64,000 bases of DNA from assembly GCA_051362555.1 (NCBI GenBank), contig CM120647.1, positions 12,066,651 through 12,130,650 on the forward strand. The letters are read 5' to 3'. The translations under genes and the position numbers were made by a program. Of the stretch, positions 105 through 61,471 are shown piece after piece (the first letter of the stretch is position 1; the number at the start of each line of letters is the position of its first letter). The notes beneath the pieces are model-generated. The model did not search any database, had not been told where the DNA came from, and saw nothing but the letters and a program-made list of their open reading frames with translations. The DNA comes from Lingula anatina (taxonomy: Eukaryota > Animalia > Brachiopoda).

Positions 105-11492
<11,388 letters not shown>

Positions 11493-28449: not shown

Positions 28450-39625
<11,176 letters not shown>

Positions 39626-51399: not shown

Positions 51400-53475
51400 T
51401 TTCATTCTTTCTTTCTAACTTTAGGGTGGTGGTAGATAACGAACCAGAAAAGAGTTCGGATTTCAGAGAATGCTTAAGGACGCGACATTTAGGGCGTACT
51501 TTTGTTCGAGACTGAGACTATTCCATGAAGACACGAGTAAGTATTCAGGACCCTGGAATGTAAACTTAGCTTGGGTAATGTAATCTCTGTACGACGACTC
51601 TTGTTTGCGGGATTATTGGAGTTTCAAAAGACAGGGGATCTTCGAAACAGGCAAAGCACCCAAAACCAGCAGACCAGCTTGATAGTAAATAAAAGAAAGT
51701 TTAGAAAGATTCCTTTTAGTTGCTGAGTGATAGAGGATGTCGCAGTAATCAAGCAGAGACAGAACGTAAGCGTTATATAGTATATTCAAGTGCCTAGATA
51801 TGAGCCCATGGGGCAGGGACTTAAGAGGATTCAGGGCCTTTTGGGCCTTAGTAGCTAAATAACTTATATGCTCGGCACAAGACAGTTTTGAATCTAGTAC
51901 GAATCCGAGATGTTTGTGGAATGATTTCCGGGGTATCGTTAAATTTCAAAATATTAGATTTCTTTATTTATTTGCTGTAACCTTGGTAGAGAATATAACC
52001 CCACAACCGTATCAGGTTTGAACTCCAGTTTCCACCTGGTAGACCATTCCTCGAACTTTGAGAGGTCAGATTGAAGTGCATCGTGCAACTGGCTGTCAGA
52101 AGGGATAGAAGATTGAAAAATAGACGTGTCGTCGGCATATAGAAAACAATCTGAAGAAAGGTTGTCTGCTAGATCATTTATATATAGGAGGAAAAGTAGA
52201 GGACCGAGAATGCTACCTTGTGGAACACTAGTATTGATATAAGATTCTTTGGAAGATTCAGATAGCGTACCGTTAATACGGACTTTGACTTTTCTATCGC
52301 TCAAATAAGAGGATAATAGTGACAGTAGGTTACCTGTAATACCATAGGCTGACAGCCTGTATAATAATAAATTATGCGGGACTTTATCACAAGCGGCTGA
52401 AATATCAAGAAATATTCCTCTTACATCTCGGCCCTTTCTAAAATTAGATCTAATCAAATTTTGAATTGCCGTAATTGATGTTCAGTGCTATGACCCTTAA
52501 GAAACCCGTATTGTTTTTCAAACACTAAATTATTATTAACGACATGGTTAATCGTCCTCTTATATATAATTTTTTTCCAATTTTTTGATAAGACGCTCAA
52601 AAGTGACACTGGTCTATAGTTATCTATGCAACTTCTGTCCCTTTTCTTATAAATCGGGCAAATAAACGCCATTTTCCACAGGTCAGGGTAGGTGTTAGAT
52701 TGAATTATATAATTGAATAAAATACATAATGGTTTCACAACGACGTCTTTGCTTAGTTTTAACATTTTTATCGTCACCGAGTCCGGACCACTTGCCTTAG
52801 ATGCATCCATATCATGGATTATTACTTTGATCTCAGTGTCATTGACATCAATTTCTGACAAAATTGCATTTTTTTATTGGTGAAGTTAACTAATGCTGTG
52901 GATGTCACTACATCGGAATGGTACCTTTCTGAAAAATATTCTAGGAAAACTTTGGCCTTTTCTAAATCTGTGATCGCAATTTGACCAGTCGTATGGTTTA
53001 AAAGTGTTGGAATTGACGTAATGTATATATTTTGAATCCATAAGGCTATTAATAGTCGACCAAAATAGTTTACGACCATTGCCAGGTTTTTCATCAAGGC
53101 TTTCAATTAGACTGTTAAAGTAGGATTCTTTCATATCCCTTATAAGTTCCCTAACCAGCACAGACTGAGTATCATAACCGAGTATATTGCCACCCAGGTA
53201 CCAGTTCCGTGAGTGAGCGTTAAATTCCCCGTTGATGATTATTCCGTCAGATCGGGCTAATTTGGCTCTATAGAGACAATCAGATAATTGGCTTATACAT
53301 TGGTTTCTTTCATTTACAGTTTAGCTTGGAGATATGTTAACAATTCCGTACAAAAACGTTTTATGTTTAAGCTGTAGTTCAATCCAAAAGCAGGCCAACT
53401 CCGTGTTACATAAGTCCTCTCTTATTTTATATATCATGTCATTTCCCGCATAAATTATAAAGCCACGTCCCTTTT
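51400..53475 (-). mobile_element. Degenerate CR1/L2-type non-LTR retrotransposon (APE endonuclease + reverse transcriptase remnants)
   Basis: Frameshifted ORF pieces: CFWIELQLKHKTFLYG and GIIINGEFNAH (APE); KASGPD, NYRPVSLLSVLSK, QYGF, FLDISAACDKVPH, VPQGSILGPLLFLLYINDL, YADD, KHLGFVLDSKL (RT). Boundaries approximate. Confidence 0.9.
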
Positions 53476-54637: not shown

Positions 54638-56212
54638 ATGGAGACGGATATTCCACCGGACGTGTGCTTTCTTGTTGGAGACAGAAGAGAGTCCATTTAC
54701 GCACATCGAGCCACATTGGCCTGCCAGAGTTCGGTTTTCCAAGCCATGTTCTACGGATCACTTCCGGAATCTTCTAAAATTGTGATACCGGATATAAGTC
54801 CAGATGTTTTTAAAGTGATGTTAAGGTGGGTCTCCAAACCATAATGGCAATAAACATGAACACTAGCCCCCCCCCCCCCCTCTCTCATGCTTGGTTGTCA
54901 TGAGTTGGTTCATGAATCTGTAGCACTTACAGTATATTCAAAGCAGTTGTAGTTATATGCCGGGAGTTGGTTTACGTTTACTGTGGCTATTTTTAAATGC
55001 CCTCTGCAATACTTGTAAAGAACAGTGTCTCTACTAGTAATGTGTCACAGAAGTAATGCATGGATCCTCTGTAAACGCCATTTTCTACTCCTTTTCATAC
55101 ACAGGTTCTTGTATTATAAGAAGACGGAGCTCAGTGGAGAAAATATAGTTCACGTGTTACTTGCCTCAAAGAAATATCTTATTCAGAGTTTAATCGGTGC
55201 GTGCAGGGAATATCTCCTCTCCAACATAGATACCGGAAACGCGTGCACTGTTGTGGAGGTGGCTTTGGAATTAGACGAGGAAGTAGTGCTTAAACCCTCA
55301 TTAGACTTCGTGGATCGCAACACTAAGGAATGCCTGCACTCGGACAGTTTTCTTGACTTGAACCCTTCGAATCTATGTGTAATTATAAAAAGAGACACCT
55401 TGAAGATAAACGAAGACGAGCTTTTCACATGTGTAATGAATTGGGCCAAGTACGCGTGCGAAAAATTCGGTCTAACGCAATCCGGTTTCGACAAGAGACA
55501 CGTTTTAGGTCGGAGTTTGTATCTTATACGTTTCGCTCTAATCAAAGTCTCGGTCCTGTGGGAATATCTTATGTCAGAGGAAAATGAAGGGTTACTTAAC
55601 ACCGAGGAATTGCAGTGTCTTAGGGGTGACCACTCAGGTTGTCGCCAGCGAGCAAAATTTGGAGAGTGTTTTTTCTCGTCTCGTCCTAGAGACACATTTG
55701 GTGACGTCATCAAGTGCACGAGGTTCACTACATACAGCGCACGGAAAAACATCGATTTTAACAGAAGTGAAATCAAAAACGACACTGAAGCACCAAGTCA
55801 ACACACCCTCTTTTCATTATCTTTCAAATGCAGCAGACCAATTCTGTTGACGGGCCTCGGTTTGTACACTGGGTTGAGCAATATAAGCAAATGCGGAATG
55901 GAGGTCAGAGTCGAAAACGAGGATGCAGGAGAAATGACGGCACAAGAACACCAAACAGCATTCGTTTTACTATTTCATGGCACAAATGAAATTCTGCTCA
56001 ATACTGGAGTTTATATTGACGCCGGTATTTGGCATACAGTTTATGTCAAACTTTCGGGACAAGTACTTGTCGAGGGTCAAAGCGATTTGTGTTCCTGCGT
56101 TTTATCTAAGGCAGGAAATACGTCATTCGAGTTTAATTATGACGCACATAAAAACAATATCCATGGACAAATTCCCTATCTTCTATTTAAAGAACAGAAT
56201 TCCAATGAATGA
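54638..56212 (+). CDS. BTB/POZ-BACK-PHR domain protein (BTBD1/2/3/6-like Cul3 adaptor family), about 431 aa
   Basis: Exon 54638-54825 (DVCFLVG...IYAHRATLACQSSVFQAMFYGSLPE...IVIPDISPDVFKVMLR) joins exon 55105-56212 (FLY...VLLASKKYLI...NACTV; BACK: SDSFLDL...IIKRDTLKINEDELFTCVMNWA...LYLIRFALI; PHR-like: LSFKCSRPILLTGLGLY...GQIPYLLF) across a GT-AG phase-2 intron. An acceptor (tttttag) at 54630 implies an unlocated upstream exon. Confidence 0.88.
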
Positions 56213-56556: not shown

Positions 56557-59500
56557 TCAACCACGTGAGGATGTCAAGAATTTAAAGGTTGGTCCTGCCG
56601 TGGGTCCTCTAATGTCCATGGTGGCAGGAACCGCTGCCAGAGCCTTTCCTTGCAGGGACAAGGCGTGCATTAAAGCAATGCAATCCCGAAGCCTGTCGGG
56701 TTTCCCCGAAAAGCTCTCCTGAAGACAATGTAAGAGATTCGTGTACATTCGGTCAAAAATGAGTGACATCGCAATCGCTCGGGGATTTCCTGCCAAATTA
56801 AGGGAGTTGGGATTATCAATTGTGGGCCATACGCCGTGTTTGTTAAAAGGGATGCGTGGTCCGGTGTATTCGTATTTAACATGGCATTGGATTTCTTCTT
56901 CCTGACGGACACTGTAGAGGTTGTGTTCGCATTTTCCATTTCCCTCTTTTTGTCCACTTTTACTCTGACCTCCGTGCGCGTTATTATTCCTAGCGTTCTT
57001 CTGTATCAAAGTCTCAAACGTAAACCGGTTTTTATTACAAGACTCACTGTTTGGATTCAGGCGTTCTTCAGGAAACTCCTTACCATTGTCCATCTTACCT
57101 GTGACGCGAATTTCTCTCCCCTGAACGATCTGTGCAAATTTATAATAGTGTGAAAGATCACCCTGGTCTCTTGTCAATGGCAAACACGCGTCCCCACCCT
57201 CCCCTTGTTCGGTTATCAGAGCAATGGCGTCTAGGGCCGATGACAGGTTGAAAATTGGAAAAGGTCTTATGCTTTCTCTCATACCGTACCAGAGGCTCTC
57301 GTTAATTTGATAACCCGGATCGCCCGTGAATATATCAATGTCTTTTTTCCTCAAATTGACTAGAAGGGATTTGATTCGGTTATAGAATGATGATATGGTA
57401 TTGCTGTAGTTAGATGACAAAGACTGGTAACAGTTCGTGCTGATGTCCTGATTCGATGCCTTCACTGCACTGTACTTAGTGTAGGGTTCGTGAGAAAGAG
57501 AACACGATGGAGGTGCTGCACTGTCCTGACAATCTGACTTCTCATGACCGGGAACAATATTACCGTTACTTCTGGAACAGCTCGCCGAAATTTCCTGGGC
57601 AGGTTTCTCCATTTCCATAAATACCGATTCAATGTATTCTATAGATACGTGCTCCAGGGAAATCAGTAGATCGGGGCGGACACCCCCGGGTAACTTGGTC
57701 GGATACTCGGGGACCACCCCGGGGGAGGTGACATCAGGTGCCCCGCCCACTGCGTTGAGGATATTAGCAACCAACACCATGTGCAGCATCTCTTGCACTA
57801 CAACACTGCGTATGATTTGTGCTATATAGGTATTACTCCCGTCCTTGATGGACATTAGGGCGGACAGATAAGGCGGTATGGTTGTGAACTCCAGCATCAG
57901 GGCCTGCTGTAGAAGTTGCCGAAGTTTGGTTACGGATGTTGAGTCGGCGCCAAGCAAAGGATTATCAAGCCAATTAAGTATCATTTCTTTCTTTTTTTGT
58001 GAAAGATCCCTCGTCACAGGCATGTGGTTTGGGTGGTGTAGGGGAAGATCAAGAACAAATCTGATCTTGTCCGCGTTTCTTACCACGCTTTCATAGTTCG
58101 TCAGCTCGAAGAATTTCCCCATTACAGGGTACAGTTTGCTGTAGGGTTCAAATATTGGTAACACGTGGTCGTACCACGTTGGAGCATTTGGTATGTCGTA
58201 TTCCTGAAACACGTGGATGCCAAGGACAAATACGGCAGAATCGCCTGATACTGTTTCGTCGGCAAGACCAGTGGTAACAGTGAAGTTCACATATAAAAGA
58301 TATAATTGAGACCCCTGCAAAACCACCCTATTTCTGTAGTCTCCGTTCTCTTCTATTGGGTCATGGGCTGTGATTTCAATGTAAGCGATACCATTTTCAT
58401 CAGTTTCCACTGGTTTCGGTAGCGACAGAGCCCGTTGGGGGATGCTAAAGCCAGGAGTACACGGGCCACATAACTGGAAAACGCTTGCGTCCCCTGTGTC
58501 CCCAAATGTCACGCTTATTGCAACACCTGAAATCGGGACACCAAACTTGCTGGCAAATACGGTAAAATTCCACCTGTCACCTGGATCTTTTTTAAAGGTG
58601 TTGTTGTACATGGCACCAACAACTATACCGTGGGCACGTTCGGCGAGGACAACCTGCTTACACTGCGACACGCTTATGAAGTTTTTGTCACCTACGTTGA
58701 CACTTTCATCAGCACCATTCTTTTTGTTCGTCAGGTTCATGTCACCGGGCAGTGTTATTCTGAACAGAATCATAGGAAATCTAGATACATCAACTACTTG
58801 GTCTTCAGAGAGGTCAAAGGTCACGACTCCTGCCGTGTCCTGATACCATTCCGGGGCAGAATAGTTCACCTCTGAAATAACACGTACGATATCATCACAT
58901 TGGGCCACTTCGATTGGGTCAAGGTCGCCGCTGAGTTCAAGGTCAGCAATCTTCCTCTTTTTGTAGACGCCGAGAGCAATCCTGCCTATCTTGTCAGGGT
59001 CAAACTGGCCCTCCATGGTCGTTCTCAGACTGTTCCCCAAATCAACGGTGAGCAATTTCAGTTCAGTGTTCAGAACAAAGGGAGCGTGGCAAAATGGAAG
59101 ACCAGCACACTCAATTTCTTCGGCACGTAGTATTCGGCTGCTGCGCATGTGTGGAATGGAATCGCTGGAGTGATGAGGGCCAATGGTGCCAGTCAACCGT
59201 CCCATCAAGAAGTCTTCACTGGTGGTGTTGAGAGCGCTGTCGAACATGTCCATGTTGAATTTGATTGACAGTGCCTGGCCACTGGCCTCCGAGATCTCGT
59301 CTAAGAAACGAGACTGATAGGTCGGGTCTAACCACTCGACGTCTCCGAGGACGGACTTGAAGTGCGCAGCCGCAGAGGCTGTATACAATGACGCGGTCTC
59401 AGCGCACTTAAACCAGAAATTCTGGCTGGGCGTTGGGATCATGGTGGCCCGGAACCCCCCAGGGATGTGTAGTGTAAGACCGTAGAGTGACGGGAGGGTG

Positions 59501-61471
59501 TCGCAGATGGTGTAAATATCTATCAGTTTGGCAGGCGAAGCTAGGAACCAGTCTTAGAGAGAAGAAGTTATATTAAGTTAATACGCATTTGCAAAAAAAT
59601 GTATGAAATTAATTCTGGAACTTACATTTAGCGACTAAACGATTTTGCGGTCTCATTGTTTCAGTGAAAGATAGAAACATGTACTCTAAGAAGAAGAAAG
59701 AGAGGAAGAAGTAGAAGAAGACGTACAAGAATGCACAGACCTAAACTATACGTCAGCAAACAGTTACGTGACAGTGTTAGAGAAAGCAAAAAAAGGTCTG
59801 GTAAACAAAATCTATTCTTTATAGTATTTCCAAACAATGTATTGTGTTAGAGAAGACAAGAGAATCCGATAAACACAATCTTTTCTTTTCAAATACCACA
59901 AGCGTATAACCTGCATATCTTGAAAGCACAATGCAACGTATCTCAATTTATTTACAATGCAACACAACATAAGTAATTATAAAGGAATAATAACCAAGCG
60001 TGAAACATCCGTCAGTTTTACCTTCCACCTTTTCTCCAACGATTGCGTCATTGTAGGTACACGTCCCATCGCCATAGCATACTGATGTCACATACGTCTC
60101 GTAAAATATAAAATTGCCACTTCCCTGGAATTAAGGAACAAGGCATTTCATGTAGAAAAGTGTTAAAAAAAGGACGTACGTAATTGTAAATAAGGCAGCT
60201 TATTTGCGTAACCGCCATATACGCATACTAAAAGAACACACCCGTCAGCCTACGCTACTGTTATTTTCTTTTTCACTCTCCCTAAACTAATATTAAGTGA
60301 TGAAATTTATGCCTTCCCTGTTGTGTTAATGAAACGTTTATAATATATTGTCCGAGGCTTTATATGTCTAAGGGTAGTTTGTGATGTATACATGTCTGCT
60401 ATCAACATTTTGATGCTACAATGTAGAAACCAAACGTGGATTCTGACATTGGCTGCCGAAACGCACGTAGGTCATGAGAAGCCAGAGTACAGAGATATTA
60501 CCTGAATATTGAACCCGTGGCGTTCGCTTGGGAGGCGGGGCCCATTGTAAAGGCTCATATTGAGGTTATATACGTAATTGTTGGAAGTTATGGGATCGAC
60601 ATAAAAACGTCCAGCAAAATGTAGGCGAGGAAAGCCAAGATAGGAGTAAATGGCATCTGAAAGTGATATAAAACGTCTACATATATATACGTCTGACATA
60701 CTGTAGAATCAACCTTTGCGCCTTCATCTAATAATACAGCTTTCAATGCAGATATAATGTATCACTTTATGACCCCATTCCCATACATAGATCGATCTAT
60801 CAGGATCGACCCATCTCCGAGGGATTTCTCGCTAAATTATATTGGCTTAAGCGACTCAGATGTCTGACACGCCTACTGATGCTGTTACGGGGTAATTAAC
60901 TATCGTGTAGCAGCTTTAATAGGCGTGCCAGACACCAAATCTCCTTAATCCGAATGTAATTTTGCAAGAATCCCCTCGGAGATTGGTCGATCCTGCTAAA
61001 TTGATCTAGGTATGGGAATGGGGTCTATGAAATAAGACATTGCCAGTGATAATGGGAAGATACATCTACCAGCAGACACGACCGCCTATTCTATGACAGA
61101 CAATTATTAACATTGCTATACTGCCGGATACAAGTACATACAGGTTATGTCTTAAAATGAAGGACACAGGGAAAAGAACATGTTGACTCATTTAATTTAG
61201 TGAATTTGATTACAAAAACTATGATGGGAAGCTACAGGACGTAATATGTAGACTTCAAAAACTGATTCTGGGTTTTCTTAAGGTGATGGATAGATAAAAA
61301 AAAGATAATGTCTCAGTTCATAAGCGTAAGTGACTTGTTAACGATATCAAACTGAAGACCAAGAACTGCTAACAAATATCATTTACCTGATCCATCGTCG
61401 GTGCGAAGACAGGGGAAGGAGGACACCAGCATTGTCACCATGAGGCCAAGGGTAACTGAAATAGTCCCCAT
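56557..61471 (-). CDS. VioB/RebD/StaD-like (indolepyruvate-imine dimer synthase family) protein with C-terminal ferritin-like domain and predicted signal peptide, about 1112 aa, 4 exons
   Basis: Exons 61387-61471 (MGTISVTLGLMVTMLVSSFPCLRTDDGS), 60502-60656 (SYLGFPRLHFAGRFYVDPITSNN), 60022-60124 (GSGNFIFYETYVTSVCYGDG...DAIVG) and 56557-59552 join in frame via GT-AG introns (phases 1,0,1; 3339 nt). Family-type motifs: N-terminal PRLHFAG; LYPVM...HMPVTRDLSQKKKEMILNWL; ferritin-like LQQALMLEFTTIPPYLSALMSIK...QEMLHMVLVANILNAVGG...FMEMEKP...TISSFY...EQGEG...SHYYKF. Exon 1 is the least certain. Confidence 0.85.
60771..61025. mobile_element. Palindromic MITE, same family as 15217-15426, in intron 1 of the VioB-like gene
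   Basis: GACCCCATTCCCATAC...GTATGGGAATGGGGTC, fold-back over most of its length, TAT on both sides, shared core GGGGTAATTAACT. Confidence 0.8.

Follow-up and report, generated by a model that had tools for sequence, protein, structure and literature searches.

The described proteins closest to the gene analyzed here are the bacterial enzymes VioB, RebD and StaD and the ferritin-like protein CC_0557 (PDB 3hl1, PF12902). VioB contains heme b and shows catalase activity (PMC9705886), and a 2021 review lists no structure for it; PDB sequence searches matched only the ferritin-like part. The gene in question consists of four exons on the minus strand of a 64,000-nucleotide stretch of Lingula anatina contig CM120647.1 (hereafter, the window). 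A first-pass annotation had taken it for a gene of a VioB/RebD/StaD-type enzyme that was acquired from bacteria. Judging from sequence comparisons, the encoded protein has the scaffold of VioB/StaD but is not a VioB/RebD/StaD member; it belongs to an uncharacterised sister family. Its C-terminal bundle matches CC_0557 (Z 26.6, rmsd 2.3, 254 residues), a protein of 317 aa that stands alone, without the beta-rich half or the small Met-containing domain (Met domain) of the window protein.

According to the search with the VioB model TIGR04492, the exon 4 product scored 10.5 bits, whereas membership requires 1250, and the maximum among 47 scanned homologues was at most 54 bits. The best stretch of StaD-type genes, taken from 14 of 301 Streptomyces genomes, reached approximately 470–520 bits with the same model, and the true VioB of Pseudoduganella violacea reached 1856 bits. 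Two profiles were custom-built for comparison; the spliced protein obtained 51 bits with the profile of CPA synthases and VioB versus 728 bits with that of the bacterial sister family (positions 2–897). Pairwise scores with VioB or StaD were only 35–38 bits, and VioB itself gave 55 bits with the sister-family profile, across positions 1–634. The sister-family motifs TxNN, K.xDxD, YPxM, MPVTRDLS and EEMxH were all present in the full-length match of the window protein, and identity to the bacterial "ferritin-like" members, the true family of the protein, was 28–38%. In addition, P. violacea carries its true VioB and a sister-family gene at separate loci, and the trees place the window protein outside the CPA-synthase clade, on a long branch. 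The assignment to VioB/RebD/StaD-type enzymes was therefore not upheld.

The homology to these enzymes nevertheless extends beyond the ferritin-like domain, as had been proposed: in the hhalign program, the sister-family profile aligned with a StaD-type protein over 851 columns (20% identity, E 5.6e-39). Shared with VioB/RebD/StaD are the overall layout and length, the PRxHFxG start, two invariant Met around MPxxRDL and the E/EMxH/E/EQGEG/SH ligands, in addition to this full-length profile homology; the differences are the low identity, the scores far under the cut-off and the sister-family bacterial loci without a Trp-oxidase partner. Introns, a leader, sequons and additional Cys further set the animal form apart. 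Bacterial sister-family proteins are either fused (~900 aa) or split (~600–670 aa plus 350–420 aa) and are cytoplasmic, in contrast to the predicted secretion of the animal form; their genes either stand alone or belong to ebo or telomycin-type clusters.

A search with exon 4 gave 367 representatives with E ≤ 1e-30, the best match being a Lingula protein (48–53% identity). The named animal members belong to a brachiopod (Lingula), a hemichordate (Glandiceps), lancelets (Branchiostoma, several paralogues), tunicates (Styela and Ciona), stony and soft corals (Oculina, Desmophyllum and Dendronephthya), jellyfish (Rhopilema and Sanderia) and homoscleromorph sponges (Corticium and Oscarella), while no vertebrates, arthropods or nematodes were found among the named matches. 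Predicted orthologues are present in databases (Lingula LOC106173762, Branchiostoma C3ZH50, Ciona LOC100180317 and Corticium LOC134196459), some under the purely automatic label "iminophenyl-pyruvate dimer synthase domain-containing". The bacterial range is wide, with 519 and 459 matching stretches in a species-genome collection, in many phyla and in both fused and split forms.

The first phylogenetic tree was constructed without 31 near-redundant, mostly actinobacterial sequences, and the later trees used hand-picked sets of 55, 43 (LG+C20) and 23 sequences. In three trees, Bilateria and Cnidaria formed well-supported separate groups that joined together, with the sponge sequences outside both. 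In the LG+C20 tree, support in the Shimodaira–Hasegawa-like approximate likelihood ratio test was 99 for Bilateria, 99 for Cnidaria, 96 for the two together and 93 for all animal-side sequences, which include ENA sequences without a species name. The window protein was sister to the Lingula protein with a support of 100. The split between animal and bacterial sequences was supported at 99 in the 23-sequence tree, and forcing the window and Lingula proteins to the bacterial side was rejected in the approximately unbiased (AU) test with these sequences (p-AU 0.0016). From sponges to tunicates, the orthologue tree follows the broad animal tree. In the preferred reading, the gene was acquired once, probably from bacteria, and no later than in the last ancestor shared by sponges, cnidarians and bilaterians. 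Of the earlier proposal of a transfer, the bacterial origin stands as most likely, but the acquisition was not made by this animal, since its orthologues follow the animal tree. The tree pattern of the animal orthologues partly agrees with what had been named in advance as evidence against the proposal, namely, broad vertical inheritance in eukaryotes; non-animal eukaryotes were absent among the named full-length matches.

As a separate observation, a big diverse clade (P0066, P0130, P0134, P0137, P0143–P0145, P0171, P0213, P0392–P0406 and others), mostly of ENA sequences, some of them on megabase-size contigs, grouped with the named sponge sequences with a support of 87. A profile search for this clade gave 16 further ENA entries that carry no species name. 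From its tree position, we guess that this clade is possibly a demosponge expansion.

The gene is real and intact and is not a contaminant, because it has introns and animal-type neighbours in the window (EGF exons, a BTB-BACK-PHR open reading frame (ORF) and reverse-transcriptase fragments) and was found in 10 DNA runs from four studies of one organism, with a share of at least 0.35 in seven of the ten runs. None of the runs listed as containing the gene stretch was an RNA run. The exons (Table 1) join into 3339 nt encoding 1112 aa with zero internal stops, which confirms the four-exon frame put forward in the first-pass annotation. The location of the diagnostic N-terminus in small exons was also confirmed, since the spliced N-terminus aligned with the Lingula anatina homologue without gaps over junctions 2 and 3, far above chance. 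All motifs cited earlier were found in the spliced protein, at positions 33 (SYLGFPRLHFAG), 588 (LYPVM), 625 (MPVTRDLS), 665 (ALMLEF), 702 (EMLH), 896 (EQGEG) and 915 (SHY).

Table 1. Parts of the four-exon gene and of its predicted product, with positions in the window.
Feature	Position	Strand	Description
Exon 1	61387..61471 (85 nt)	-	ATG and hydrophobic, signal-peptide-like leader, residues 1–28
Intron 1	60657..61386	-	730 nt, GT-AG, phase 1; contains a palindrome like a miniature inverted-repeat transposable element (MITE)
Exon 2	60502..60656 (155 nt)	-	N-terminal family motif SYLGFPRLHFAG and conserved TxNN
Intron 2	60125..60501	-	377 nt, GT-AG, phase 0
Exon 3	60022..60124 (103 nt)	-	Residues 81–114; Cys96 and Cys102, enriched in animals
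Intron 3	59553..60021	-	469 nt, GT-AG, phase 1
Exon 4	56557..59552 (2996 nt)	-	Residues 115–1112 plus stop
Beta-rich region	58204..59552	-	Residues ~115–564; no Pfam family, weak Ig/MG-like Foldseek matches only
Small helical domain	57946..58203	-	Residues 565–650; weakly cytochrome-c-like; predicted heme site
Met592 and Met625 codons	58120–58122, 58021–58023	-	Invariant in the sister family, StaD and VioB
Ferritin-like four-helix bundle	57124..57912	-	PF12902, E 4e-55; predicted di-metal site

Several features of the protein go beyond the first-pass annotation. Exon 1 encodes a hydrophobic leader, with a hydropathy of 2.36 in a stretch of 11 residues, and the protein contains 21 Cys as well as 10 sequons for N-glycosylation. 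Leader hydropathy was at least 2.0 in 18 of the 23 named animal homologues but in none of the 37 bacterial-type sequences. The density per 1000 aa in animal versus bacterial-type sequences was 8.1 versus 2.5 for sequons and 19.6 versus 6.4 for Cys; Cys96, Cys102, Cys333 and Cys412 are kept in 71–95% of animal sequences and in nearly none of the bacterial ones. Relatives contain additional domains: EGF in Dendronephthya, FN2 in one Branchiostoma member and, in tunicate members, repeats whose sequence motif we take to be TSP1-like. On the basis of the leader, sequons, Cys and these fusions, the animal protein is predicted to enter the secretory pathway.

The structure model of the exon 4 product (pLDDT 80) comprises a beta-rich half, the small helical Met domain and a ferritin-like bundle. 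The predicted di-metal ligands E669, E702, H705, E763, E899 and H916 are 97–98% conserved where the position is filled and are common to StaD and VioB, which bears out the ferritin-like C-terminus with candidate metal ligands described earlier. Met592 and Met625 are likewise common to the window protein, true VioB and proteins of the StaD type. Outside the bundle, His conservation is not strong, the best being His41 with 46%, and the beta-rich part contains the invariant residues N54, N55, R254 and E419. Structural neighbours of the bundle include Dps, bacterioferritin and Mn-catalase. The Met domain was also folded alone (pLDDT 83); it lacks the CxxCH heme-attachment motif of class I cytochrome c and has YxxLYPxM in its place. 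An Atlas search returned only clusters without names.

The genomic context of the bacterial family was analyzed in 177 loci, of which ~14 repeat a contig and 132 are at least 12 kb long. A StaO-like Trp oxidase gene was found in none of them, whereas a flavin amine oxidase gene lies directly upstream of StaD in all five StaD loci tested; no L-Trp oxidase gene was seen among the long ORFs of the window either. Two or more ebo genes accompany the sister-family gene in 28 of the 177 loci. In approximately 10 of 22 actinobacterial loci, it occurs together with genes of a P450, an aminotransferase-methyltransferase and an acylase. In one such genome (G002), the family gene is situated between the P450 and aminotransferase-methyltransferase genes, near the acylase gene and an 11-module (4+5+2) nonribosomal peptide synthetase (NRPS). 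The pockets of this NRPS presumably specify Asp-Ser-Thr-Thr-(Ala)-Gly-Pro-x-x-x-Pro, with modules 8–10 lacking an assignment. As far as the accessible parts of the sources describe telomycin, this cluster appears to fit its residues, dehydro-Trp included (PMC6331918), its P450s tem23 and tem29 (PMC8471579), its acylase Tem25 (PMC13592322) and its two-module terminal NRPS (PMC9113097). The accessible part of PMC10880069 assigns no enzyme to the Z-dehydro-Trp of telomycin. Since the family gene sits in a telomycin-type cluster, the only bacterial context that could be linked to a product, and the dehydro-Trp enzyme is unassigned, Trp side-chain desaturation or oxidation may be regarded as the lead chemistry, and the sister-family gene is a natural candidate for this step, as judged from one cluster type.

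Other observations on the bacterial loci are as follows. The telomycin-type cluster (G002:C1:555000–615000, L062–L064) includes a GH95-like gene, and glycosyltransferases are encoded in related clusters, so glycosylated telomycin analogues may exist. A TonB receptor gene recurs in 20 loci, and a gene of a 335-aa protein without a Pfam match is located just upstream of the family gene in 27 loci (e.g., L108:4894–5898). In four loci (L146:2–2260, L077, L215 and L217), a LodA-like quinoprotein gene with a flavoprotein partner lies near the family gene; such quinoproteins could be suppliers of imines or H2O2. The Pseudomonas tryptophan side-chain oxidase is a two-subunit heme enzyme, and its identity with the split form of the family was considered. 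This found no support: of the 301 Pseudomonas genomes searched, only the query's own contains the family, and its named Pseudomonas matches belong to the cichorii group only.

Taken together, we give roughly even chances to the explanation that the gene is an orthologue of an old animal family, once received from bacteria, whose product is a secreted heme and di-iron oxidase, likely acting on a Trp-type side chain and not in the coupling of indole-pyruvate imines. A single bacterial gene would have been taken up at or before the sponge/cnidarian/bilaterian ancestor and then refitted for secretion. In the encoded enzyme, Met592 and Met625 would ligate a b-heme in the small helical domain, the heme would exchange electrons with the E/ExxH/E/E-H di-iron bundle, the bundle would handle O2 or H2O2, and the beta-rich N-terminal half would bind the substrate, whose Trp-type side chain would be oxidised instead of two indole-pyruvate imines being coupled. 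The heme b and catalase activity of VioB suggest this Met/Met heme, which would be housed in a cytochrome-c-like fold devoid of CxxCH and act together with the di-iron site. In a more specific version, which we consider rather improbable, the family would supply the alpha,beta-desaturase that is still missing for aromatic amino-acid residues, with a bis-Met heme in such a fold wired to the di-iron bundle; it would make the Z-dehydro-Trp of bacterial telomycin and, in a secreted form present in animals since their common ancestor, the dehydro-Trp and dehydro-DOPA units found in metabolites of sponges, corals and tunicates, such as aplysinopsins, barettin, halocyamines and tunichromes.

A number of observations weigh against this oxidase explanation. 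In four RNA runs, 4, 9, 18 and 2 reads were found (33 in total), some in exon 4, in mixed direction and with no junction-spanning read, and the leader was judged by a heuristic based on hydropathy. For the Met domain, the top structure among 48,161 chains was cytochrome PccH (Z 5.4, rmsd 3.1, 76 aligned residues), the sole one with Z ≥ 5 and a weak match, under the trust level of the tool (8–13); heme-c proteins FoxE, YhjA and MtoD took ranks 2, 10 and 28, with four such proteins in the top 50. Foldseek found nothing for this domain at E ≤ 0.001, a further PDB search found nothing significant, and Pfam and PDB-sequence searches gave no match for either the Met domain or the beta-rich half. Most of the 177 loci show no readable pathway, the telomycin-type context is limited to the actinobacterial loci mentioned above, and three NRPS modules of that cluster lack an assignment. 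Finally, the root position shifts between analyses (bacteria paraphyletic in the first tree, unresolved in the LG+C20 tree, among the animal sequences in the 55-sequence tree), so the bacteria-to-animal direction is only the parsimonious one, and some animal-side sequences without a species name could be non-animal eukaryotes, e.g., protists. The moving root also speaks for an inheritance without any transfer into animals, either an old eukaryotic one that was widely lost or an earlier exchange between bacteria and unicellular relatives; the long-branch sequences P0155, P0169, P0162 and P0202 might be protists, and only some matches carry names. We hold this origin to be improbable, given that the named full-length matches included animals as the only eukaryotes and that the VioB/StaD outgroup and the split forms are bacterial, in many phyla. 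Far less credible are bacterial contamination and a recent transfer specific to the lineage of this animal. The length of exon 4 and its GC content of ~46–47% versus ~37% in the window would agree with them, but the introns, the animal flanks, the DNA runs of four studies, the Lingula protein as the nearest relative and the AU test all contradict them.

As for the function, an enzyme of the VioB/RebD/StaD type would allow the animal to dimerise indole-pyruvate imine to bisindole pigments or defence compounds. The full-length StaD homology and the common ligand set with both Met agree with such a synthase, and animals can provide imines via secreted L-amino-acid oxidases. The low scores with the VioB model, with the CPA-synthase/VioB profile and in pairwise comparison, the contrast between the sister-family and StaD loci in the StaO-like gene, and the separate VioB and sister-family genes of P. 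violacea make it of quite low probability; bisindole synthesis, as proposed in the first-pass annotation, lacks support because the Trp oxidase gene is missing beside the bacterial genes and the animal protein has the appearance of a secreted one. A role outside the cell in handling peroxide or iron, of the catalase or ferroxidase kind and without small-molecule biosynthesis, is unlikely but deserves more weight: the di-metal site is complete, Dps, bacterioferritin and Mn-catalase are among the structural neighbours, relatives have extracellular domain fusions, most bacterial loci are without pathway context, and VioB has catalase activity (according to the accessible text of PMC9705886). However, the ~560 conserved beta-rich residues with their four invariant positions exceed the needs of detoxification, and the readable bacterial contexts are biosynthetic.

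The remaining part of the window contains several other elements. Fourteen single-exon calcium-binding EGF modules form two minus-strand clusters (eight at 3400–7900 and six at 31300–35700), which duplicate each other with 73–90% DNA identity in blocks and represent a fibrillin/nidogen-like gene with an internal or a tandem duplication. The intronless BTB-BACK-PHR ORF (55019–56212, plus strand, 397 aa from stop to stop) is convergent on the 3' end of the gene and may be truncated or retroposed, because the match covers only part of the BTB domain. Broken reverse-transcriptase fragments of the long interspersed nuclear element type are located at 51954–53320 (minus strand). The MITE-like palindromic element of intron 1 (60756–61041) is ~290 bp long, with 73-nt arms that are 86% complementary, and no second copy of it was found in the window.

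A full-text literature search found no paper on the animal members or the sister family; most subscription papers, the original telomycin study included, were outside its reach. Surveys of horizontal gene transfer may list family genes in their supplements; in one tunicate survey (PMC13390645), no ferritin or VioB term was found in the text or one supplement. What is new is a pan-animal variant of the VioB scaffold that is predicted to be secreted, and what is already known are the database entries under automatic names. The gene represents an overlooked family of predicted metalloenzymes of ~1000 residues, which has likely accompanied animals from their beginnings, would have been adapted to secretion and shows expansions in corals, in lancelets and, probably, in sponges. 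The family could account for the dehydro-Trp step of telomycin, to which no enzyme is assigned, and provides a host-encoded candidate for the indole chemistry of marine invertebrates, which is usually credited to symbionts. The two invariant Met offer a testable heme-site hypothesis for VioB/StaD, and a desaturase with a bis-Met heme and a di-iron site, if true, would explain heme binding in those enzymes by the same architecture. This is less dramatic than the recent capture of a pigment enzyme, yet it points to an unrecognised ancient enzyme family of animals.

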